Sequence record: OM632669.1
DNA from: Escherichia phage BEU42
Strand: one strand, 5' to 3'
DNA length: 64,000 nucleotides
Positions within the stretch are counted from its first letter, which is position 1; each line of letters starts with the position of its first letter. Position numbers and translations under genes: made by a program. Of this stretch, positions 2,535 to 18,044 are shown piece by piece. The notes beneath the pieces are model-generated. The model did no database searches, was not told where the DNA came from, and saw only the letters and a list, made by a program, of their open reading frames with translations.

Positions 2535-3374
2535 ATGCCTGTTCTTAAAGTGATGTTCCATAAAGACACCAACGTAGCTACTGTACTGGATGCCAGTGGT
2601 AGCCTTAGTGATGGTTCCGTTGAGGTGGGTACTTTCCATCATCCTGATGAAACCTATCCTGATAGTGTAACTATCTATCATGGTGTACGTGACCTGCTGT
2701 ATAAACGCAGTGCTAAAGACCCATCTCAAACTGCTTCTTACCCAAATAACATTATCAATATGCAAGTTATCAGTATTGATATGAAGGCAACTCCTCGCCT
2801 GATTTTGGGTACTGCATTACCTCGTGTAATCTCTACTATTGAAGGCAAAGATGTAACCTGGCATGTAGATGTTGCTGGTGGTAAAGCACCATTGACTTAC
2901 AAGTGGCAGTTTAAAGCTAATACTGTAGGTGCTGCTTTCGCTGATATTGATTCCGGAGAGAATCCTACAGCTAAAACTGCAACTCTTATTAACCATGCAG
3001 TAACTGCTGAATCTGCTGGTACTTATAAAGTCATCGTTACTGATGCTAACGGTACTACTATCGAGAGTTCTTCTCTGCTGGTTGTAGGAGTTCAGGAACC
3101 ACCTGAAGTAGCTTCTATTGTTGCTTATCCAAGTCCACTGGCTCTATCAGTAGCTGATGATATTACTGATGGTAAAACAGTTAAATTTTCTTCCCTGCCT
3201 GCTGGCTCTTTGATTGGTACTCTGTCCATTAAGACCCAGCCTGACAGTGGTAAAGCTACTGCTGAGATTAGTGGTAATGTACTGACAGTTAAACCTGTAG
3301 CCGCAGGTGACACTACTGTAGTGGTCACCAACGGAACCAAGGAAGTAACTGTTACGGTTAATGTTACAGAATAA
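2535..3374 (+). CDS. Ig-like (Big_2-type) domain protein, possible capsid decoration/surface protein
   Basis: 279-aa ORF with ATG; beta-rich T/V/S repeats ending TVVVTNGTKEVTVTVNVTE typical of bacterial Ig-like domains; no hydrophobic segments. Confidence 0.45.
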   Translation: MPVLKVMFHKDTNVATVLDASGSLSDGSVEVGTFHHPDETYPDSVTIYHGVRDLLYKRSAKDPSQTASYPNNIINMQVISIDMKATPRLILGTALPRVISTIEGKDVTWHVDVAGGKAPLTYKWQFKANTVGAAFADIDSGENPTAKTATLINHAVTAESAGTYKVIVTDANGTTIESSSLLVVGVQEPPEVASIVAYPSPLALSVADDITDGKTVKFSSLPAGSLIGTLSIKTQPDSGKATAEISGNVLTVKPVAAGDTTVVVTNGTKEVTVTVNVTE

Positions 3375-3395: not shown

Positions 3396-3418
3396 AGCCC
3401 TCCTTGTGGGGGCTTTTT
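3396..3418 (+). terminator. rho-independent terminator candidate
   Basis: GC hairpin agccc...gggct followed by TTTTT just downstream of the stop at 3374. Confidence 0.45.
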
Positions 3419-3443
3419 AGTATCTATAGGAGAGTAAATAATT

Positions 3444-3758
3444 ATGGCTAATAAGAACCGTCTTCGTGTATGGCATATCCCTCAAGTACCCGGCAAAGCC
3501 TTCTATGTTGAAGTAGATTCAGTAGAAGAAGGTGTACGTATCATTGATATACTAGCCAACTATGACCTATTCCAGTATGAGAACAATATCAAAGGTGATT
3601 ACTGCAATGTCTCTGGTTTACAGATGTATGATGAACATATCACTGATGATGAAATGGAAGAGATGGGTCTGACTGACCGTTGGGTAGACTGGTACTATGA
3701 AGATGACCAGAGCTTTTTTGATAACCCGAAAGAGTATTTGAATAATCTCAAGAAGTAA
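3444..3758 (+). CDS. hypothetical small acidic protein
   Basis: 104-aa ORF, ATG preceded by GGAGAG; D/E-rich C-terminal half. Confidence 0.5.
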   Translation: MANKNRLRVWHIPQVPGKAFYVEVDSVEEGVRIIDILANYDLFQYENNIKGDYCNVSGLQMYDEHITDDEMEEMGLTDRWVDWYYEDDQSFFDNPKEYLNNLKK

Positions 3759-3798
3759 TTTCTTGGGGTTAATGACCCTTATTAATTCCTTATCCTTT

Positions 3799-3821
3799 GC
3801 CCTCCTATGGAGGGCTTTTTT
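3799..3821 (+). terminator. rho-independent terminator
   Basis: 7-bp stem gccctcc/ggagggc, 3-nt loop, then TTTTTT. Confidence 0.6.
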
Positions 3822-3832
3822 ACGGAGTACAA

Positions 3833-4039
3833 ATGTTTAAGTTTTTAGACCTTATCTGGGCAGTCATTTTGCTGGTTGCTACAGGCTTTGTATATGGCTT
3901 CTTGCTCCCATCAATGATGTCTGCTTTAGACAGCATCATTGTTGTTATGGGCTTGATAGTCTGTATTGTGTGGCCTCTTATCGTAGGCCGTATCGTTTAT
4001 CTTACAGTTAAGAAAAGGATGAGAAGAAAACATGTATAA
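3833..4039 (+). CDS. small membrane protein (2 predicted TM helices)
   Basis: ORF track gives 3797 (TTG); ATG at 3833 has GGAG 5 nt upstream; product MFKFLDLIWAVILLVATGFVYGFLLP... is hydrophobic; stop overlaps start of next gene. Confidence 0.45.
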   Translation: MFKFLDLIWAVILLVATGFVYGFLLPSMMSALDSIIVVMGLIVCIVWPLIVGRIVYLTVKKRMRRKHV

Positions 4040-4868
4040 GTACATTGCAGTAGCAATTGCAGGGCTAATCATTGCTCTAAGTTTAACGAGCTGCTATGAC
4101 CGAGTTGAACCAGGTAATGTAGGTATTATCGTTAACCGTCTCGGTGAAGATAAAGGCGTGGAAAATGAGGTTAAAGGTGTAGGCCGTTACTGGCTCACTT
4201 GGAATGAAGAACTTTATACATTCCCAACCTTTAAGCAGATGAAGACCTATGATGGTCTGTTCTACTTCCAACTGTCTGATGGTACTCAGATAGGCCACCA
4301 GATGGCTATCAGCTATAAAGTGAACCCTACTAAGGTAACTAATATCTTCCAGACGTATCGTAAGGGAGTTAATGAAATTACCGAGCAGGATTTACGCCAA
4401 CGTATTGCTGATGTACTTAACAGACAGGGTAACCTGATTAACACTGATACATTTATTGATGGTGGTAAATCTAAGCTACTAGATAGTGTCACTGACACAA
4501 TCCGTAAAGAGATGGAACCAGTGGGGATTGATATTATTGCTATCTCCTGGATTGGTGCTCCTGAATACCCTGATAACGTTAAACGTGCCATTAATGCCAA
4601 AGTAGAAGCTACTCAGAAAACTCTGCAACGTGAGCAAGAGATTCAACAACGTGTAGCTGAAGCTAATATGGAACGTGAACAAGCTAAGGGTGTAGCTGAT
4701 GCTATTCTGATTAAAGCTAAAGCAGAGGCTGATGCTATTCGTTTACGTGGTGAAGCACTCACCGAGAATCCAAATGTAATGCAACTGGAAGCTATTAATA
4801 AGTGGAATGGTACATTACCTACCACAATGATTCCTGGGGCTACTACACCTTTCGTTAATGTGAAATAA
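4032..4868 (+). CDS. SPFH/band-7 (stomatin/prohibitin-like) lipoprotein
   Basis: 278-aa ORF; N-terminal signal with lipobox-like LTSC; SPFH-like core followed by charged coiled-coil segment (EQEIQQRVAEANMEREQAKG...). Confidence 0.55.
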   Translation: MYKYIAVAIAGLIIALSLTSCYDRVEPGNVGIIVNRLGEDKGVENEVKGVGRYWLTWNEELYTFPTFKQMKTYDGLFYFQLSDGTQIGHQMAISYKVNPTKVTNIFQTYRKGVNEITEQDLRQRIADVLNRQGNLINTDTFIDGGKSKLLDSVTDTIRKEMEPVGIDIIAISWIGAPEYPDNVKRAINAKVEATQKTLQREQEIQQRVAEANMEREQAKGVADAILIKAKAEADAIRLRGEALTENPNVMQLEAINKWNGTLPTTMIPGATTPFVNVK

Positions 4869-4874
4869 CTAAGC

Positions 4875-4905
4875 AAACCCACCATTACGGTGGGTTTATT
4901 TTTTG
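4875..4905 (+). terminator. rho-independent terminator
   Basis: 9-bp stem aaacccacc/ggtgggttt then TTTATTTTTT, 7 nt after stop at 4868. Confidence 0.65.
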
Positions 4906-4930
4906 AAGTTATCTAACACTGGGTATTCCT

Positions 4931-5155
4931 ATGAAAGTAAATGTTTTACGTCGTAAGAAAGTTCCTTTCTTTCAAATCAATTGTGGTTCATGTTTTCAAC
5001 ACGATGATGACTACTATATGAAGTGTAGTTATCAATCTAAAGAACACTTCTATGGTGTGAATTTACAAACAGGGCATCTGTTCACATTTGATAATAATGA
5101 CTTTGTTTATCCTGTGACTTTAGAAGCATGTATTCCTGACCCACTTAATAAATAG
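4931..5155 (+). CDS. hypothetical protein
   Basis: 74-aa ORF with ATG; contains CGSC motif; no recognisable domain. Confidence 0.35.
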   Translation: MKVNVLRRKKVPFFQINCGSCFQHDDDYYMKCSYQSKEHFYGVNLQTGHLFTFDNNDFVYPVTLEACIPDPLNK

Positions 5156-5156
5156 T

Positions 5157-5513
5157 ATGGCTCAAGAAAAGAATCGTCGTCAGACACTTATCGAACGTAT
5201 TCAGGCCAGAATCAAATTACAGGACTTAGGCTATACCGTTAATGGTCAGCCTAGCCTCTGTCACATCTGGACTGGTTCACATTCAGGTAATGGACGCGGT
5301 GGGCAATATGGCAGGATTTCCGTGAATGGAGTTACCTCTGCAACTCACATTATTGCCTATACCCATTATCATGGTTATATCCCCAATAAGATGCAAGTAG
5401 ACCATCTCTGTAATAATCGTCTGTGCTGTAACCCTGAACATCTTGAATTGGTTACTCACCAAGAGAACCAGAGAAGAAGGGCTAAGCGTTCTAAATCTAA
5501 AGGAAATAAATAA
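5157..5513 (+). CDS. HNH endonuclease (free-standing homing endonuclease-like)
   Basis: 118-aa ORF; HNH signature VDHLCNNRLCCNPEHLELVTHQEN. Confidence 0.7.
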   Translation: MAQEKNRRQTLIERIQARIKLQDLGYTVNGQPSLCHIWTGSHSGNGRGGQYGRISVNGVTSATHIIAYTHYHGYIPNKMQVDHLCNNRLCCNPEHLELVTHQENQRRRAKRSKSKGNK

Positions 5514-5684
5514 ATGATTAAAAAACTTATTTGTAAACTTATTGCAGCAATCTTAATTAGTATTATTGGTATTGCATGGGTAATTTCTACTCCAGATAAC
5601 GTTATGCAACAAATTTATTATGCTGTATATACATCAACCTCTTTTGTTTGGGTTTATGTAATGTACCGTATTTGTAGCGACTAA
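5514..5684 (+). CDS. small hydrophobic protein (56 aa, about 2 TM), absent from ORF track
   Basis: ATG immediately after HNH stop (taaATG); translates MIKKLICKLIAAILISIIGIAWVISTPDNVMQQIYYAVYTSTSFVWVYVMYRICSD. Confidence 0.35.
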   Translation: MIKKLICKLIAAILISIIGIAWVISTPDNVMQQIYYAVYTSTSFVWVYVMYRICSD

Positions 5685-5713: not shown

Positions 5714-6772
5714 ATGGCTAGTATTGATTCTATTGCCGTATGTAATCCACGGCAGGTACGTAAATTTGTTGAACACTGTATCCGTTCAGGATTGGTTCCA
5801 TTTATCACTTCATCTCCTGGTATGGGTAAATCTGCAATTGTTCATCAGATTGCAGAAGACTTTGGCCTGAAACTGATTGACCATCGTCTGTCTACTTCAG
5901 CACCAGAAGACCTGTCAGGTCTGCCTCGTTTTAAAGAAAATGGTCGTGCTGAATTTGCTCCATTTGACGAGCTATTCCCACTGGAAGGGGATACTGTACC
6001 TGAAGGATTTAATGGCTGGCTTCTCTTTCTCGATGAGTTTAACTCTGCTCGTAAAGAGATTCAGGCTGCTGCTTATAAATTGGTACTCGACCGTATGACT
6101 GGTCAGAAGAAGCTACATCCTTATGTAGCTATCGTATGTGCTGGTAACAAAGCAACTGACCGTGCCATTACTAATAACCTGTCTACAGCTATGCAATCAC
6201 GTCTTATTCATCTGGAAATGGAGACTGATTTTGATGTCTTTATGGAAGATGTAGCTATCCCTAACAAATGGGATGAGCGTGTAATTGCATTCCTGAATGC
6301 TAACCCAAATAAACTGAATGATTTTGAACCAGACCATCAAGAGAAGACTTTCTGTTGTTCTCGTACATGGGAGTTCGTTAACAAGATTGTTTCCATTCTC
6401 CCACCGGGACCGATTGATAGTGAAATGACTCTGCTATTAGCAGGCACTATCACCTCTGGTGTAGCAACATCATTCGTCCAGTTTACTCAGGTCTATAGCA
6501 ACATGGTGTCTTTGAATGAGATTTTGGATAATCCTAAGAAAGCTCGTATGCCTGAAGACAATAACCTGTTGTGGGCTGTAGTCACTTCACTGATTAACAA
6601 TACTGACGAAGATAATCATTCGAAAATCTTTGATTACGTTGAACGTATGCCATTTACGTTCAAGGTTTTGTACTACCGTTCCGTAGGTAGTCTGGTTCCA
6701 GCTTTGGTTAAATTACCGAACTGGCGTGTTGCTGCAATCACATTATCTAAATACGTTCATGGTTCCAATTAA
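5714..6772 (+). CDS. AAA+ ATPase, MoxR-like
   Basis: Walker A SSPGMGKSA, Walker B LLFLDEFNSA; 352 aa; followed by VWA protein as in MoxR-VWA pairs. Confidence 0.7.
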   Translation: MASIDSIAVCNPRQVRKFVEHCIRSGLVPFITSSPGMGKSAIVHQIAEDFGLKLIDHRLSTSAPEDLSGLPRFKENGRAEFAPFDELFPLEGDTVPEGFNGWLLFLDEFNSARKEIQAAAYKLVLDRMTGQKKLHPYVAIVCAGNKATDRAITNNLSTAMQSRLIHLEMETDFDVFMEDVAIPNKWDERVIAFLNANPNKLNDFEPDHQEKTFCCSRTWEFVNKIVSILPPGPIDSEMTLLLAGTITSGVATSFVQFTQVYSNMVSLNEILDNPKKARMPEDNNLLWAVVTSLINNTDEDNHSKIFDYVERMPFTFKVLYYRSVGSLVPALVKLPNWRVAAITLSKYVHGSN

Positions 6773-11234: not shown

Positions 11235-13325
11235 GTGAAACGAAATTATCTCGCCATTATTGCCCTGTCAGTAGACAGTCGTAACCTCACCTTATGGCAA
11301 CCAGATGGTTCTACTATGGTCATCCCCCAAGGGGATGCCCGTGTACCACGTATTGTTGCTGAAGCAAAAGAAAAGAATCTTACCCCAGGTAAGATTATCG
11401 AAGTGGATGTCACTATCGAAGCTCAGATTCGTCAGGAGTTTCTGGACGCTGAACGTGATACAGGTGGCTTTGTTAAATTCTTCCGTATTACTAAGAAGAG
11501 GCTACAAGAGTTCTTCTTAGGGGAAGAGGAAGAACAAGTCCCTTATGTATCACCTGTAGAGTTAGGTGCTAAACCCACTGCTTTCAATGCTTTTATTGCT
11601 AATGCTGTAGGCAAAACTCTTGCTGTACAACATGCATCATTAAAAGCACCTGAACCAGAAATGACAGTTACTCATGAGCGTTTTTACGGTAACTATGCTG
11701 TATGGATTACAGATGTAGACCCACGGAATCATCGTATTGAGGTTATTCATGTTATCCGTGAAATCTCAGGAAGAACCAGTGAATATGTCAATAACCTGCT
11801 GGCTCAACCAACCCCATTCAAAGTATTTGATTGGCTCACAGAGACGCAGGCTAAAGAGTTTGTAAGACGTCTGAATAACACTCAGGGTGTTATCTCTGTC
11901 TATAACAAACTGGAAGACGGTATTCCTGCTAAGGTTGCTGTAAAGGCCACAAAGCCAACCAATAAGGAAAAGCTGGAAGCTGCATCAACTAAGCTGAAAG
12001 CTATGGGTGCTGTCGCTACTGATGCTTATGAGTTTCATACTGACTTGAATGAGAATGAAGAGACTATTGTAGCTGTAGTGAATGATAAGGTGGTTCCTGA
12101 TGTTCAGAACCTACACCGCCACATCCGTCAATCTGCAAACCTGAAAGACTATAAAGGCTTTACTAAGTTCCTTGAACGTCTGTCTACTGTAATTGATAAA
12201 CGTCGTCACTCTGTTGAAGACCTGATGAAGTTTATGGAAAAAGGTGACCTGCCAATTGCAGATGATGGCTCCATTGTTATCTTCAAACGTCTGGAAAGCA
12301 AAGACAATCCTGAACATCTCAAAGACGTAATGGATGATGTATTTGTTGATTGCCATTCTAGGAAGATTGAGCAATGCGTTGGTATGCGTGTAATGGTTAA
12401 AGAAAACCTTGTAGACCAGAACCGTCGTAAAGACTGTTCTCATGGTTTGCACGTAGCTTCTCTGCAATACATTCGTAATTTCTCAGGCAACGTAACCATT
12501 ATTGGTAAAGTTGCTCCAGAGGATGTATTTGCAGTACCAGAATACGATGTTACTAAGATGCGTGTATCTGCTTATCACATCATTACCAAGCTACCTGATG
12601 CTATTCGTGACCATGTTAATAATGGCAATCCAATCTCCACCATTGAGGGTGGTACGGAAATCCTGAACATGGTTCTCAGTGGTAATCACCCTGAACCTTC
12701 CCGTCAGGTACTGGTTGGTGGTCATTATGGAACCAATCTGACTTATTCAGAACTCACCCGTAATTATCTGGATGATGAGGAAGACATCGTTATTCCAGAT
12801 GAACCAGTAATTAAGAAAACTGCCTTGAATATGGAAGAGAGCTTTACGGCAACTAATCCTAAAGCTGAACCAGTGAAGGCAACGGATGTTAAACCTATTA
12901 AGAAGACTAAGATGGAAATTCTTAAAGACCTTTGGAACCAGTTCCTGAAAGCAGAGACTTCTAATGAAGCTATTACACTGGCTGATGAAATCATTGCTGC
13001 TAAGGGCAAATGTAAGAAGTCATGGGCTTCTTTAGGCTTCAGTGGTGACATGGTTCAGAAACTGATTGATGCTCGTGCTAATAAACCTAAGCCAGAAAAA
13101 GTAGTCAAACAGGATAAAACTGTTGCACCTAAGAAAACTACAATCACTCGTAGTCGGAATGCTGATGTTATTCGTAGCTATCTGAATGACAAAGGTATGT
13201 CTGATTACTGTAAAGCTCATGCCATTCACGATGTGAAACGTGCTGCTAAGAAATCTTATGCTGCACTGGGTCTGACTCCTGAAGAATGCAGCCAAATTGA
13301 TAAACTGAAGCATCATTTGAAGTAA
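11235..13325 (+). CDS. conserved hypothetical protein (696 aa), GTG start
   Basis: long ORF beginning GTG with GGAG 8 nt upstream; no motif recognised. Confidence 0.5.
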   Translation: MKRNYLAIIALSVDSRNLTLWQPDGSTMVIPQGDARVPRIVAEAKEKNLTPGKIIEVDVTIEAQIRQEFLDAERDTGGFVKFFRITKKRLQEFFLGEEEEQVPYVSPVELGAKPTAFNAFIANAVGKTLAVQHASLKAPEPEMTVTHERFYGNYAVWITDVDPRNHRIEVIHVIREISGRTSEYVNNLLAQPTPFKVFDWLTETQAKEFVRRLNNTQGVISVYNKLEDGIPAKVAVKATKPTNKEKLEAASTKLKAMGAVATDAYEFHTDLNENEETIVAVVNDKVVPDVQNLHRHIRQSANLKDYKGFTKFLERLSTVIDKRRHSVEDLMKFMEKGDLPIADDGSIVIFKRLESKDNPEHLKDVMDDVFVDCHSRKIEQCVGMRVMVKENLVDQNRRKDCSHGLHVASLQYIRNFSGNVTIIGKVAPEDVFAVPEYDVTKMRVSAYHIITKLPDAIRDHVNNGNPISTIEGGTEILNMVLSGNHPEPSRQVLVGGHYGTNLTYSELTRNYLDDEEDIVIPDEPVIKKTALNMEESFTATNPKAEPVKATDVKPIKKTKMEILKDLWNQFLKAETSNEAITLADEIIAAKGKCKKSWASLGFSGDMVQKLIDARANKPKPEKVVKQDKTVAPKKTTITRSRNADVIRSYLNDKGMSDYCKAHAIHDVKRAAKKSYAALGLTPEECSQIDKLKHHLK

Positions 13326-14215: not shown

Positions 14216-15535
14216 ATGTATAAAAGTACTACTAAGCTGCCACTAAATCCTGGTCAAGAGGCAGCGGCAGAAGGTTTCTTCGACTTTCTGCTCGACCCCA
14301 ATGCTTCTGAACTTCGTATTAGTGGACCTGGTGGTACAGGCAAGACATTTACAATGGCTCATATGATTGACGAGATTATGCCTCGTTATCATGAGACATG
14401 TAGTCTGATGGGAATCCCTGCTCTCTATAACGAAGTTATTATGACTGCTACTACTAATAAGGCAGCAGAAGTATTAGCCCGTGCAACAGGACGTCCTACG
14501 TCTACCTATCATTCCTTTCAAGGTCTGACAGTACGGAATAACCTGAAGACTGGGGAAGCAGACCTGATTCCATCTAAGTCCTTCAGTATCAAAAAGAATA
14601 AGGTCATTTTTATTGATGAAGCATCAATGATTGACCGTAAACTGAAGAAGTTCATTAACGAAGGTACTCACCAAAGTAAGATTGTTTACTTAGGTGATAA
14701 ATGCCAATTGTTACCTGTAAAGGAAACTTCTTCTCCTGTCTACAATGACAGTAGCATTAAAGAGTTTATGCTGACCCAGCAGATGCGTACTGATGTCCCT
14801 GAACTCCATGCACTGCATGAACAGCTTCGTGGAACCATTGAAGGTAAGCATGGATTCCTGCCTATTAAAGCAGTTCCAGGTATTATCGACTGGATTGAAG
14901 ATGGTGATGAAATGAGAAAAGAAGTCGAAGGTCATTTCATGACTAAGACTGACACTCGTATTGTTGCCTATACCAACCAACAGGTTGTTAACTATAACAC
15001 CTTCATTCGAGCTATGAATGGATTCCACGGGGAGTTCTGTATTGGTGAAGAGTTAGTAAGTAACTCTGCTATTCAGATTGGTGCTGGTGATCGCCTTAGT
15101 ATTGAACAGGAATGCCAGATTGTTGACCAGGATTCTGCTACTCGTAAGATTCTGATTGATTCCTCTGGCATCGAATTAGAAGTACGTGATTGCACCCTGG
15201 ATACTGGTTATGGTGGTGTCTTTGAAGGTATCCCTATTCCGGTAGATATGGATTATTTCATTCGTTTGCAAAAGTACTATGCACACCAAAAGAACTGGGA
15301 ACGTCACTTCTATTTGAAAGAAACATTCCCTGAACTTCGAGCATTACATGCTTCTACTGTGCATAAGTCTCAAGGTTCTACCTACGACACCATCTTTATT
15401 GATGCTACTGATTTATCTACTTGCCGTCAGCCTGATGTAGTAGCACGTCTGCTTTATGTAGCAGTATCTCGTGCTCGTCATCGTGTTGTGTTCTATGGCT
15501 CTTTGGCAGAGAAATTTGGTGGTCTGGTTCGCTAA
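14216..15535 (+). CDS. SF1 DNA helicase, Dda/RecD-like
   Basis: Walker A GPGGTGKTF, Walker B VIFIDEASM, C-terminal TVHKSQGST and YVAVSRARHR motifs. Confidence 0.8.
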   Translation: MYKSTTKLPLNPGQEAAAEGFFDFLLDPNASELRISGPGGTGKTFTMAHMIDEIMPRYHETCSLMGIPALYNEVIMTATTNKAAEVLARATGRPTSTYHSFQGLTVRNNLKTGEADLIPSKSFSIKKNKVIFIDEASMIDRKLKKFINEGTHQSKIVYLGDKCQLLPVKETSSPVYNDSSIKEFMLTQQMRTDVPELHALHEQLRGTIEGKHGFLPIKAVPGIIDWIEDGDEMRKEVEGHFMTKTDTRIVAYTNQQVVNYNTFIRAMNGFHGEFCIGEELVSNSAIQIGAGDRLSIEQECQIVDQDSATRKILIDSSGIELEVRDCTLDTGYGGVFEGIPIPVDMDYFIRLQKYYAHQKNWERHFYLKETFPELRALHASTVHKSQGSTYDTIFIDATDLSTCRQPDVVARLLYVAVSRARHRVVFYGSLAEKFGGLVR

Positions 15536-15544
15536 GGAGAACTT

Positions 15545-16072
15545 ATGCAACTGGGTGAAAAACAAATCCGTGAAATGACTAATAGTAGTGAACTAGTTCA
15601 GGAATTATTCTTAGCCGAGTTACGTCGGCTAGATAAAGTGCTGGATAGTATCATTACACGTAATGGGGAAACATTCGCTGTATACAACTCAACAGGGTTT
15701 CTGTATTTAGGGGAGTTCTATTCGAGTTCCCGTTCATCACAACAACCCCCTTCTGGTCATCGTCTGGCTCTGGCTAATCACCTACTGGATGATATGCGGG
15801 AGTATCTGGAACAAGCAGGTAAACTTCTGCTAGAAGTCCATATGGTGAATCAGATGGTCTTTCGTCTGGTTCAGGGCTGTAAGACTTATCAAGACGTTCG
15901 TGATGCATTGCCAGAATGCCTCATTGCTATGGATAAACAGGGTCATCTGAAATCCTTACAGAGAACCAGAAAGGCAGCATTTACTCTGGATAATGATGCT
16001 ATGGCTCTCCGTCAGTATGAGAAAATCTTGCCGATTATCGAATACTATGCGGGAACCCATCTTATCTTTTGA
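15545..16072 (+). CDS. hypothetical protein
   Basis: 175-aa ORF with ATG and GGAG upstream. Confidence 0.45.
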   Translation: MQLGEKQIREMTNSSELVQELFLAELRRLDKVLDSIITRNGETFAVYNSTGFLYLGEFYSSSRSSQQPPSGHRLALANHLLDDMREYLEQAGKLLLEVHMVNQMVFRLVQGCKTYQDVRDALPECLIAMDKQGHLKSLQRTRKAAFTLDNDAMALRQYEKILPIIEYYAGTHLIF

Positions 16073-16079
16073 GGTCTGT

Positions 16080-18044
16080 ATGCGTCACATTACATTCAAC
16101 AATGAGGGTATCTACCCTATTGCTATCCTTACTACAACGTTACGTAAGGATGATATTGTCAAAGCATACATGGAACCCTGGGATGTAGATAAAGATTCAG
16201 TAATGATTCTTGAACTTCATACAGCCCCAGGGAAAAAGAAAACTCCTGCTAAAGAGATGCAGGAGTTTATTACCCAAGAATTAGTGCCAGCATTCGAAGC
16301 AGCACAAACTCAGTATATCATCTGTGGTGATTCTGAATATTACAAACAGCTAACCAAACAAGGTAAAGCTGATGCCAATATTGGCTATGTAATGGATTGT
16401 GCTTATGGGAACCAGAAAGTTATTTACGTTCCCAATTACAGACAAATCTTTTATGACCCGGATAAGGTAAAGACTAAGATTGCTTTATCCATGCAGGCTC
16501 TGATTGATTATGTCTCTGGTTCTTATGTTGAGCCAGGAACTAAGATTATCCACTATGCTGATTATCCATTAACTCCAGAAGCTATATCTAAGTGGTTAGA
16601 TAAGTTACTGGAGATGAATGTTCCATTAGCAGTAGATATAGAAACCTTCAGTCTGAAGCATTATGACTGTGGTATAGGCACTATTACATTCTGCTGGAAC
16701 AAGCATGAAGGGATAGCATTCCCTGTGGATTATGAACCAATTGAGGGGGCTACTGAAGCTCCTTATGGTAGACAAGTTCACAACATGCTTGTTCGTTCTA
16801 TGCTCAGAGACTTTTTTATTAAGTATCTGAACAGGCAGATGTATCACAATATTGCCTTTGACGTATATGCACTCATTTACCAGTTATTTATGACAGACCT
16901 TCTGGATACGGAAGGGTTGTTGCATGGCATGAGTATCATGCTAAGAAACTGGGATTGCACTAAGTTAATTACCTATCTGGCTACTAACTCTTGTGCGGGT
17001 AATAAGCTAAGTCTTAAAGACCAGGCTCAGGAATATGCTGGTAACTATGCTCAAGAAGAAATCAATGACATTACCAGAATCCCATTAGCAGAGTTGTTGG
17101 AATACAACTTAGTGGATGGATTATGTACCTGGTATGTCTATGAAAAGCATTGGGATACTCTGGTTAATGACCAACAGTTAGATGTTTATACAAACATCTT
17201 CAAACCTGCATGTGAAGATATTATTCAAATGCAGTTAACTGGTATGCCTATCAATATGAAGACAGTATTGGAGGTAGAAGAGGCATTAACCCAAGACTAT
17301 AACAATGCGTTAAAAACAATTGCTGACAGTAAAGTAATCAAAGATTTCACCCGTCTTCTTAATGAAGAATGGGTAGAAAAACAGAACCAGATTCTGAAGA
17401 AGAAACGAGTGACTTTAGCTGATGCTAAAGAACAGTTTAACCCAAACTCAGGTATTCAATTACAGAAGCTACTTTTTGAGTTTCTGGAGTTACCTGTACT
17501 TGGTTTGACTGCAAGTAAACTACCTGCTACTGGCAGTGGCATACTCAAGTCTTTGAAGAACCATACCCAAGATACCAGTATTCTGGAAATTCTTGATGCT
17601 CTGATTGATTACAAAGCTGTAGATAAAATTCTGACAGCATTTATTCCAGCATTAAAAAATGCCAGACAAGGACCAGATGGTTGGCATTATCTCTTTGGTA
17701 ATCTGAACTTAGGTGGGACTGTATCAGGCCGCCTATCCAGTAGTGAACCAAACCTACAGAACCTACCTTCTGGTTCCAGATATGCCAAGATGATTAAAAA
17801 ATGCTTTGAGGCTCCTCCTGGATGGATATTCTGTGGGCTAGACTTTGCTTCTCTCGAAGACCGTATATCTGCTTTAACAACCAAAGACCCTAACAAGCTG
17901 AAGGTGTACATGGGTGTGACTGTTTATACAGTTACTATAGAAGGAGTTGACCATCATATCCGAGATGATGATACAATCGTTTATGATGGTAAAACTTATA
18001 CCGGTGAGGAGTTCTATGACGCTTTTACCCGTGGCCTTCTATGA
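16080..18044 (+). CDS. family-A DNA polymerase, N-terminal fragment (3'-5' exonuclease plus palm up to motif A)
   Basis: ORF track start 15993; ATG at 16080 follows upstream stop; exo motif LAVDIETFSL; PolA motif A GLDFASLEDRI; ORF stops about 60 codons after motif A. Confidence 0.75.
   Translation: MRHITFNNEGIYPIAILTTTLRKDDIVKAYMEPWDVDKDSVMILELHTAPGKKKTPAKEMQEFITQELVPAFEAAQTQYIICGDSEYYKQLTKQGKADANIGYVMDCAYGNQKVIYVPNYRQIFYDPDKVKTKIALSMQALIDYVSGSYVEPGTKIIHYADYPLTPEAISKWLDKLLEMNVPLAVDIETFSLKHYDCGIGTITFCWNKHEGIAFPVDYEPIEGATEAPYGRQVHNMLVRSMLRDFFIKYLNRQMYHNIAFDVYALIYQLFMTDLLDTEGLLHGMSIMLRNWDCTKLITYLATNSCAGNKLSLKDQAQEYAGNYAQEEINDITRIPLAELLEYNLVDGLCTWYVYEKHWDTLVNDQQLDVYTNIFKPACEDIIQMQLTGMPINMKTVLEVEEALTQDYNNALKTIADSKVIKDFTRLLNEEWVEKQNQILKKKRVTLADAKEQFNPNSGIQLQKLLFEFLELPVLGLTASKLPATGSGILKSLKNHTQDTSILEILDALIDYKAVDKILTAFIPALKNARQGPDGWHYLFGNLNLGGTVSGRLSSSEPNLQNLPSGSRYAKMIKKCFEAPPGWIFCGLDFASLEDRISALTTKDPNKLKVYMGVTVYTVTIEGVDHHIRDDDTIVYDGKTYTGEEFYDAFTRGLL

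Follow-up and report, generated by a model that had tools for sequence, protein, structure and literature searches.

Escherichia phage BEU42 (OM632669.1; the window is the whole analysed stretch of 64,000 nucleotides) carries two overlapping open reading frames (ORFs), 3833-4039 and 4032-4868, which are gp19 and gp20 of phage N4 (annotation in NC_008720) and encode a small membrane protein with two hydrophobic segments and a lipoprotein with an SPFH domain. The two genes recur as an adjacent pair in phages, phage-plasmids and prophages in contexts unrelated to N4 as well as in bacterial chromosomes, and in some relatives they are fused into one. The reading favoured here, which we judge to stand at about even chances, is that gp19 and gp20 form a coupled two-subunit membrane complex, a periplasm-facing SPFH cage at the inner membrane that is of cellular origin and acts in membrane control. 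The pair is a variant of the arrangement in which an SPFH protein is combined with a small membrane protein, and is set apart by a periplasmic lipoprotein as the SPFH component, a hairpin partner that is not of the NfeD type, a cellular origin and wide capture by phages.

SPFH proteins, including stomatin, prohibitin and flotillin as well as HflK/C, are found in every domain of life, but most bacterial members have no known function. The unusual features of the present case are an SPFH lipoprotein that is predicted to face the periplasm, a hairpin of about 65 residues as its apparently obligate partner, and a size small enough for phages to carry the whole. In the N4 reference gp19 is labelled ‘membrane protein’ and gp20 ‘lipoprotein’, and other public records call gp20 an ‘SPFH domain protein’ or a ‘serine protease’, so that its naming as an SPFH protein or a lipoprotein is not new. 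Phage SPFH genes have been noted in Kayvirus (PMC7150955) and Bruynoghevirus (PMC8540360), where their role was called unclear, and work on PM0222, an HflK/C-like protein of a Pasteurella prophage, was confined to its role in virulence (PMC9872710). A non-exhaustive literature search found no paper that links N4 gp19 or gp20 to a function, in agreement with the initial annotation of this DNA, which knew of none for such a module in N4-like phages, and no description of the conserved hairpin partner, the fusions or the chromosomal counterparts; CRISPRi-ART and a phage transposon-mutagenesis preprint hold no N4 data.

Conserved pairing of a membrane hairpin and an SPFH lipoprotein

gp20 matches the Pfam Band_7/SPFH family with 84 bits (E=1.7e-23) against a cut-off of 23.6, and the phrog_200 ‘lipoprotein’ family with E=6.8e-95 over profile positions 80-359 of 379; the latter profile is about 80 positions longer at the N-terminus, an excess that could come from members with a fused partner. 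The N-terminus of gp20 reads MYKYIAVAIAGLIIALSLTS up to Cys21, with a hydrophobic stretch at residues 5-20 and, at the end of the signal peptide, a sequence (L-T-S-C21) that agrees with the lipobox pattern [LVI][ASTVI][GAS]C, the cysteine of which is conserved to 90% or more when diverse relatives are aligned. The AlphaFold model of the monomer (predicted local distance difference test, pLDDT, 73.9) contains, according to DSSP, a β-sheet at residues 29-97, helices at 99-164, a strand at 166-178, a helix at 181-245 and a disordered tail, which is the arrangement of N-terminal anchor, SPFH domain and long C-terminal coiled-coil helix expected of the superfamily. The Band_7 match, the lipobox cysteine and the long helix together bear out the initial annotation of gp20 as an SPFH lipoprotein with a coiled coil.

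When the model was compared with the PDB using Foldseek, the top 36 matches were all full-length, cage-forming SPFH proteins. The matches include prohibitin (8rrh; E=7e-13 for 8rrh_B), HflK/C (7vhq, with E=7e-13 for 7vhq_G, as well as 7wi3 and 9cz2), stomatin (9oh9), erlin, flotillin and QmcA-YbbJ (8z5g), and a profile of gp20 relatives run against PDB sequences picks up prohibitin-2 (E=6e-4) and HflC through their coiled coils. Prohibitin (PHB1/PHB2) is the best overall match in sequence and fold; it is of similar length (272-299 aa), and the size predicted for a gp20 assembly, about 22 subunits, is similarly compact, but prohibitin is eukaryotic, mitochondrial, heterodimeric and anchored by transmembrane (TM) segments, and shares only 16-18% identity with gp20. 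The clade to which gp20 belongs has a signature of invariant or nearly invariant elements, namely the lipobox cysteine, (P/A)G-x-x-G, YR, NAK and a C-terminal KW-x-G-x-LP, of which W258, G260 and P263 are invariant from N4 through the Lak megaphage and phiCbK. The length of the long helix among relatives differs by exactly -11, 0 or +11 residues, as would be expected if packing into a wall requires an unchanged helical phase.

The upstream protein of 68 residues has two hydrophobic segments on the Kyte-Doolittle scale (1-29 and 30-59) and a C-terminal tail, KKRMRRKH, with a charge of +6, and its gene overlaps the start of gp20 by 8 nt (ATGTATAA); the small two-TM protein with an overlapping stop, as first read from the DNA, is thus confirmed. 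It matches phrog_1130 ‘membrane protein’ (E=2.7e-20) and carries the conserved motif YGFLLPSMMSALDS, in which P26 and S30 are nearly invariant, with the family signature P-x-h-h-S-(A/S)-x-(D/S); a word-based search of cluster representatives with gp19 returned 2 clusters only. Assignment of gp19 to the NfeD type was rejected, as it has no OB-fold and no match to NfeD (PF01957), and no Pfam match above threshold, NfeD included, was found in any of 16 diverse partners. Of the two families that the initial annotation had named for a search with hidden Markov models, SPFH was therefore found and NfeD was not. The module is defined here as a two-TM partner, 49-90 aa long, that carries the motif (Y/F)G-x-h-x-P-x-h-h-S-(A/S)-x-(D/S/T) and is directly followed by an SPFH lipoprotein with a C-terminal KW-x-G-x-LP, and the N4 pair fits this definition with its own version of the motif in gp19 and KWNGTLP in gp20.

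Adjacency of the hairpin gene and the SPFH gene far exceeds chance. Of 88 close loci, with SPFH proteins 62-100% identical to gp20, 86 have a small two-TM ORF whose end falls on the SPFH start; N4-like phages and SSU5-like phage-plasmids are represented, as are integrated polA prophages. Relatives with 62-65% identity to gp20 are found in contexts unrelated to N4: in an integrated prophage, between an Enc34-type single-stranded DNA-binding protein and DNA polymerase A; in SSU5-like phage-plasmids (about 110 kb), with RecA on one side and a DUF1281 gene on the other; inside the early operon of the P2-like phage P88; and in accessory regions of P1-like phage-plasmids. The partner genes in these four contexts encode 63-78 aa, end at the SPFH start and are homologous to gp19 (25-45% identity), with a common YG-x-L-x-P-x-h-h-S motif. 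Among distant phages (SPFH 24-48% identical), a two-TM partner bearing the motif lies upstream in GAP31, D14B, Piffle, OLIVR5 and Mx1, and also in Lak-B5, the crAss-like cr106_1 and phiBtTUL1a, directly so in all except GAP31, in which one small ORF stands between.

The distribution of the SPFH gene is broad. Relatives of gp20 were found by tblastn in 641 of 50,697 phage records, including Kayvirus, Bruynoghevirus, Vequintavirinae, Ounavirinae, phiCbK-like phages, Lak megaphages and crAss-like phages, and 720 of 5,426 complete E. coli genomes (about 13%) contain a relative of the cassette on prophages and phage-plasmids, at 417 chromosomal and 394 plasmid places. Within Enquatrovirus the pair is intact in all 15 sequenced records, with at least 98.6% DNA identity.

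The two proteins are also joined naturally in single polypeptides. The fusion P0074 (347 aa, found in two samples, on a P1-like phage-plasmid) consists of partner, basic linker, signal peptide, lipobox (LTGC) and SPFH domain in that order, and the partner region of its AlphaFold model has a pLDDT of 51-76. An exhaustive HMMER search with gp20 of 1.84 billion cluster representatives (50% identity) gave 2,981 relatives at E<=1e-3, of which 963 reach E<=1e-10 and 169 reach E<=1e-30; N-terminal extensions of at least 55 residues are present in 16 of the 150 top representatives, and about 14 of these 16 are the same fusion, with the motif and two extra TM helices. As the fused partner precedes a signal peptide, which always starts in the cytoplasm, both termini of the partner must be cytoplasmic (N-in/C-in), and the fusions further show that the conserved motif lies at the periplasmic end of TM1 and that both proteins enter the same membrane in equal numbers. 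gp19 is thereby predicted to be an inner-membrane hairpin of this topology, and the overlap and the fusions alike imply that gp19 and gp20 would be made in equal numbers. Conservation across phyla together with the natural fusions supports the claim of the initial annotation that the two proteins act as a pair, and the pairing of hairpin and SPFH lipoprotein is ancient.

Bacterial counterparts and membrane location

A scan of one genome per species gave 38 bacterial loci, in Dyella, Luteibacter, Rhodanobacter, seven Leptospira or Leptospirales, Bacteroidales, Saprospirales, Flavobacterium, Actinobacteria and Fibrobacteria, and a two-TM partner lies upstream of the SPFH gene in 32 of the 36 that were analysed. 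The pair of Leptospira sp. ‘Mane’ adjoins sdhCAB, an ArsR regulator, an AHSA1 protein, a β-lactamase-fold protein and a YkuD transpeptidase; phage genes are absent within 6 kb, and the flanks of this locus are syntenic in five other Leptospira, a genus in which the pair is a core chromosomal locus. The pair of Dyella marensis lies among genes for BlaR1/BlaI, a peptidase S9 and ribonucleotide reductase. The bacterial pairs (Leptospira, Dyella/Rhodanobacteraceae, Bacteroidota) resemble gp19-gp20 in that both genes are homologous, follow one another in the order found in N4 with starts that overlap or adjoin, and have the lipobox and the partner motif in common; they differ in their housekeeping context devoid of phage genes, and their SPFH proteins are 35-45% identical to gp20. 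We know of no characterisation of such chromosomal operons of a two-TM protein and an SPFH lipoprotein. In Leptospira, a 157-aa ORF without a Pfam match begins 3 nt after the SPFH stop (locus L132, 6828-7301) and is kept wherever the locus is syntenic; the cellular operon may thus have a third component, and nothing comparable follows gp20 in N4.

The module is shown to be a cellular operon that has been captured by many phage lineages. The initial annotation had described the pair as mimicking the bacterial operons of a small membrane protein and a stomatin. The two-gene arrangement is indeed as described, but the classical NfeD-stomatin type is not, the pair being homologous to a different bacterial operon; since the homologous pair occupies non-phage chromosomal sites, the phage version is a homologous copy of a bacterial operon type and not mere mimicry. 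SPFH-NfeD operons (QmcA-YbbJ; archaeal PH1511 with the NfeD protein PH1510) are alike in that the SPFH gene is adjacent to and co-oriented with the gene of a small membrane partner, but what defines the NfeD partner is a soluble OB-fold domain, for which gp19 has no counterpart. Stomatin faces the cytoplasm. QmcA, which assembles with YbbJ in a 26:26, that is 1:1, ratio, also faces the cytoplasm (PMC13086221), whereas gp20 has an export signal and would face the periplasm like HflK/C.

This export signal places the body of gp20, to judge from its signal peptide, in the periplasm. Of the 120 closest clusters, 50 have Asp directly after the lipobox cysteine (+2) and 55 have Tyr, with Trp and Glu in one cluster each, which amounts to Asp or Tyr/Trp in 106 of the 107 close relatives with a lipobox. 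Seydel et al. 1999 reportedly found that an aromatic residue at +2 (Tyr or Trp) retains lipoproteins in the inner membrane; no statement of this was found in papers that cite that work. Asp at +2 is an established Lol-avoidance signal for the inner membrane (PMC4623201, PMC5727369). For the enterobacterial versions, the +2 residue and the inner-membrane partner favour the outer leaflet of the inner membrane, and we infer that gp20 is lipidated and retained there; because phyla differ in their sorting rules, this location is not generalised to the family. In 13 of the 120 closest clusters the lipobox cysteine is absent, in 11 of them missing and in 2 lost by point change or N-terminal deletion. 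The 11 are SSU5-like phage-plasmid variants (among P0081-P0120) that have lost the cysteine (…GIIG-YDRVEPG) and keep the partner gene, so that the lipid anchor is not strictly required; their SPFH protein would be either held by an uncleaved signal or released into the periplasm.

A putative inner-membrane cage and the alternatives

In the favoured reading, gp19 and gp20 would be two subunits of a single membrane complex, produced by coupled translation. gp20 would be exported by way of its lipoprotein signal peptide, lipidated on Cys21 and tethered to the outer leaflet of the inner membrane, with its prohibitin/HflC-like body, its helix of about 65 residues and its KWNGxLP tail all in the periplasm; retention at the inner membrane is argued from the +2 Tyr of gp20 and the +2 Asp of close relatives, the former by the reported rule for aromatic residues. 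The gp19 motif, P-x-h-h-S-A-x-(D/S), at the periplasmic end of TM1 may meet the membrane-proximal face of gp20, and gp19 hairpins would supply the transmembrane palisade that a lipid-anchored SPFH protein does not have. By analogy, since every solved full-length SPFH protein forms a cage, gp19 and gp20 in a ratio of about 1:1 would build a closed cage of some 20-24 subunits that would fence off a patch of inner membrane. A published regression of subunit number on CC1 length, y=0.1782x+10.22 (PMC12624060), gives about 22 subunits for a helix of 65 residues, which is an estimate only, as the monomer model may merge CC1 and CC2.

N4 carries the captured cellular operon as a discrete, terminator-bounded unit, and the benefit may lie in inner-membrane integrity or in the control of membrane-protein clients during the long N4 infection. 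Speculatively, this is the most likely benefit, because the module is an operon of housekeeping type in bacteria, because temperate relatives hold the pair in lytic early operons and not in positions expressed in the lysogen, and because phages of unrelated hosts carry it; the block of a phage-specific receptor is less likely. The predicted gp19-gp20 complex would be a compact target for cryo-electron microscopy, and N4 is tractable, with a lysis inhibition and a superinfection response that are unexplained, so that deletion of the two non-essential genes could give the first phenotype of this SPFH class; if the effect on fitness were only mild, the pair would stay a well-annotated accessory module.

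Several observations weigh against this picture. Upstream of the SPFH gene, TL (gp11), Kayvirus MSA6 (MbpV), Pasto, phiCbK and Kuttervirus FEC14 have a small TM protein that is not homologous to gp19, and ST-3 has no small TM protein at all. The +2 residue of the wider family is mostly Ser or Thr, which by the E. coli rule would direct the lipoprotein to the outer membrane and so part it from a partner in the inner membrane. The sister genus Gamaleyavirus is without gp19-gp23, though gp17, gp18 and gp24 are kept, and one N4-like contig keeps gp19 with a gp20 reduced to its first 84 codons, a lineage that is in the process of losing its SPFH gene; together these indicate that the cassette is accessory and not part of the N4 core, and that any benefit is dispensable. 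Lastly, the case for a cage comes from homology and from the 11-residue steps in helix length, the structural model being that of a monomer.

The initial annotation had suggested superinfection exclusion, lysis timing and protection of the inner membrane as functions of the pair. One unlikely alternative is that gp19-gp20 acts in superinfection exclusion, enclosing or occluding the DNA entry route of later phages at the periplasmic face of the inner membrane in the manner of Imm. T4 Imm is a two-TM protein of a size similar to gp19, and the predicted location would suit such a role. T4 Imm and Sp and T5 Llp are also small envelope proteins that are made during infection and act at the inner membrane or in the periplasm, but none has an SPFH domain and no sequence or profile similarity between them and gp19-gp20 was found; nor did PADLOC models match gp18, gp19 or gp20, or the Pfam Imm, Sie or Cor families match gp19 or gp20. 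The cassette stands among non-late genes, in temperate relatives inside the lytic early operon, and adjoins gp18, a homologue of P22 gp17 (‘superinfection exclusion’), both in N4 and in Kuttervirus, yet gp18 is unlinked to the pair in most lineages. The lysis inhibition of N4 has been proposed to answer superinfection, with no exclusion gene assigned (10.1101/2025.11.12.688109). Against exclusion, finally, such proteins are usually lineage-specific and fast-evolving, while gp20 relatives remain 60-65% identical across unrelated phage types, and in Leptospira and Rhodanobacteraceae the chromosome holds the same pair as a stable operon without phage context, which argues that its basic activity is cellular and not anti-phage.

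It is likewise improbable that the pair mimics HflK/C, with an SPFH cage that captures FtsH hexamers or competes with HflK/C and so alters the turnover of membrane or phage proteins. HflK/C is, to our knowledge, the only known bacterial SPFH complex with a periplasm-facing body. Like gp20 as predicted, HflK/HflC of E. coli has its SPFH body and coiled coil in the periplasm and an anchor in the inner membrane, and it forms a cage that encloses FtsH (PMC13086221), with 7wi3 and 9cz2 among the top structural matches of gp20. The best sequence matches, HflC and prohibitin-2, are both partners of AAA proteases, and the universal FtsH would fit the wide host range of the module. The best NCBIfam match is indeed hflC (TIGR01932), but it is weak, 19.6 bits against an equivalog cut-off of 134.4, by which orthology of gp20 to HflC is ruled out, and the structural alignments to HflC and HflK chains have only 15-17% identity. 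HflK/HflC is, moreover, a hetero-oligomer of two paralogues with N-terminal TM helices, and these helices and the N-termini contact FtsH, whereas gp20 is a single lipoprotein without a TM helix and has a separate two-TM partner; no ftsH link or co-occurrence was seen in the bacterial loci.

A role in lysis timing, in which gp19 would be a holin- or antiholin-like hairpin and gp20 would corral gp19 or the real pinholin and thereby add to the long lysis inhibition, is quite unlikely. gp19 does resemble a class II holin or pinholin in its 68 residues, two TM segments, N-in/C-in topology and basic tail, but no Pfam holin family matches it above threshold, the closest being Phage_holin_3_6 with 14.3 bits against 28.4 (E=0.044). 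Lysis of N4 is explained by gp60-63, gp63 being the pinholin, and more than 60 rapid-lysis mutants lie in gp63, gp61, gp50 and the terminal repeat or are singletons, with gp19 and gp20 unmentioned (10.1101/2025.11.12.688109); their mapping elsewhere weakens a direct role in lysis. In Kayvirus (Staphylococcus phage K/MSA6), the SPFH gene mbpS and the holin-like mbpV do lie between lysK and tgl (PMC7150955), and a small TM gene directly upstream overlaps the SPFH gene as in N4, with about 30% identity between MbpS and gp20; MbpV, however, has 102 aa and one TM helix, is without the P-x-h-h-S motif, and belongs to the lysis region of a phage whose Gram-positive host has no outer membrane. A spanin gene lies 2.4 kb upstream in Kuttervirus and a peptidoglycan hydrolase gene follows the pair in the crAss-like cr106_1, but in N4 and most phages the pair is among genes of replication and nucleotide metabolism and not of lysis, and the chromosomal operons of Leptospira and Dyella speak against a lytic role.

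An extension that we regard as very doubtful makes gp19-gp20 the missing superinfection module of N4, in which the cage would intercept the DNA or ejection proteins of later N4 particles and the basic tails of gp19 would relay this to the pinholin gp63 and bring about lysis inhibition. In that case the family at large would be a two-component SPFH system, so far overlooked, with which bacteria and phages alike would report or control what happens at the inner membrane's periplasmic face. Least credible of all is neutral cargo, a mobile self-contained cassette kept by horizontal transfer with no measurable role in the N4 cycle, which would agree with the moron-like terminators on both sides, the absence from Gamaleyavirus, the truncation in one N4-like contig and the location in accessory regions of P1-like phage-plasmids, but has against it the intact pair throughout Enquatrovirus and in nearly all of the 88 close loci, the spread through phage records and E. 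coli genomes and the conservation of key residues across phyla, which together indicate purifying selection in phage backgrounds.

Gene neighbourhood and further observations

The region 3400-5200 of the window is 100% identical to Escherichia phages BEU5, BEU13, BEU14, BEU44 and BEU51; the identity to phage N4 is 98.7%. Strong terminator-like hairpins are found after gp17 (3396-3420), gp18 and gp20 (Table 1), that of gp18 having a stem of 7 bp of which 6 are GC pairs, and 11 terminator-like sites were observed in the 4.6-kb region compared with 2.8 expected. Between gp19 and gp20 there is no hairpin of comparable strength, and two weaker consensus matches lie inside ORFs. The hairpins on both sides and the 8-nt overlap therefore mark gp19-gp20 as one discrete unit with coupled translation; with only 10 nt from the gp18 hairpin to the ATG of gp19, transcription of the pair must come from read-through or from a promoter further upstream. 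As to timing, we take gp19-gp20 to be among the left-arm (middle-class) genes of N4.

Table 1. The gp19-gp20 pair and its surroundings in window coordinates
Feature	Position	Strand	Remarks
gp17, Hoc-like decoration protein	2535-3374		
gp18, P22 gp17 homologue	3444-3758		PF17420, annotated ‘superinfection exclusion’
Terminator-like hairpin	3799-3821	+	GCCCTCC-TAT-GGAGGGC and T6; ends the gp18 unit, directly 5' of gp19
Shine-Dalgarno GGAG of gp19	3824-3827	+	5 nt before ATG, seen in sequence
gp19 ORF	3833-4039	+	ATG 3833, TAA 4037-4039; 68 aa
gp20 ORF	4032-4868	+	ATG 4032, TAA 4866-4868; 278 aa, SPFH lipoprotein precursor
Signal peptide and lipobox L-T-S-C	4032-4094	+	Cys21 codon 4092-4094; +2 is Tyr
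SPFH/Band_7 domain of gp20	4101-4661	+	Residues 24-210, PF01145
Long helix of gp20	4572-4766	+	Residues 181-245, AlphaFold/DSSP; predicted cage wall
C-terminal signature K-W-N-G-T-L-P	4800-4820	+	Residues 257-263
Intrinsic-terminator-like hairpin	4875-4904	+	AAACCCACC-ATTAC-GGTGGGTTT and ATTTTTT; ends the gp19-gp20 unit
gp21	4931-5155		74 aa, Cys/His-rich, weak zf-UBP match (E=1e-3)
gp22, HNH homing-type endonuclease	5157-5513		
gp23			56 aa, hydrophobic; third small gene in 4931-5684, downstream of the pair
gp24, AAA ATPase	5714-6772		

In Klebsiella N4-like contigs the gp22 homologue is found upstream of the pair instead of downstream, and this shift in position identifies the stretch 4931-5684 as a shuffled accessory region. 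The contig with the truncated gp20 (L145, 4482-6300) has homologues of gp17, gp18, gp19 (62% identity) and gp24, with gp24 directly after the truncated gp20, and is binned in an ‘archaeon’ metagenome-assembled genome, being a mis-binned N4-like phage contig.

Positions 1-2526 of the window are the exact rIIA coding sequence (N4 15460-17985, ATG to TGA), joined at 2526/2527 to a point 8 nt 5' of the gp17 ATG (window 2527 is N4 6751). rIIA is missing from its usual site, which lies between gp32 and rIIB, so that rIIB is left to begin with a GTG at 11235 (junction 11235/11236), and the related BEU records are each arranged differently. The position of rIIA at the start of the window looks like an artefact of record building or re-linearisation and not biology, and it was rejected as a meaningful context of gp19-gp20.

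In Kuttervirus FEC14 and PhiSH19 a gp18 homologue is again directly 5' of a small two-TM ORF and an SPFH lipoprotein gene (L104, 2501-3818), both of which are very divergent. gp18 as an obligate third component was rejected, as it stands beside the pair only in N4 and Kuttervirus and is separated from gp19 by a terminator in N4; at the other loci sampled, among them N4-like contigs of Klebsiella and Erwinia, it was not seen beside the pair.

The gene of the fusion P0074 (L106, 6001-8304) lies in the accessory region of a P1/P7-like phage-plasmid, with a Tad2-like gene, of a family of Thoeris anti-defence proteins, about 700 nt downstream. Another prophage (L005) has a TIR-domain gene some 2 kb downstream of the pair, where it comes right after the gene for DNA polymerase.

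Several public records hide the small partner. The ORF is unannotated in those of Kuttervirus FEC14 and the crAss-like cr106_1, the region of Burkholderia phage phiBtTUL1a is annotated on the opposite strand, which conceals both the partner and the SPFH gene, and the Lak-B5 record has no annotation whatever; the loci of these poorly annotated partners are L104 2809-3027, L097 1259-1444, L099 1304-2262 and L102 1170-1421.

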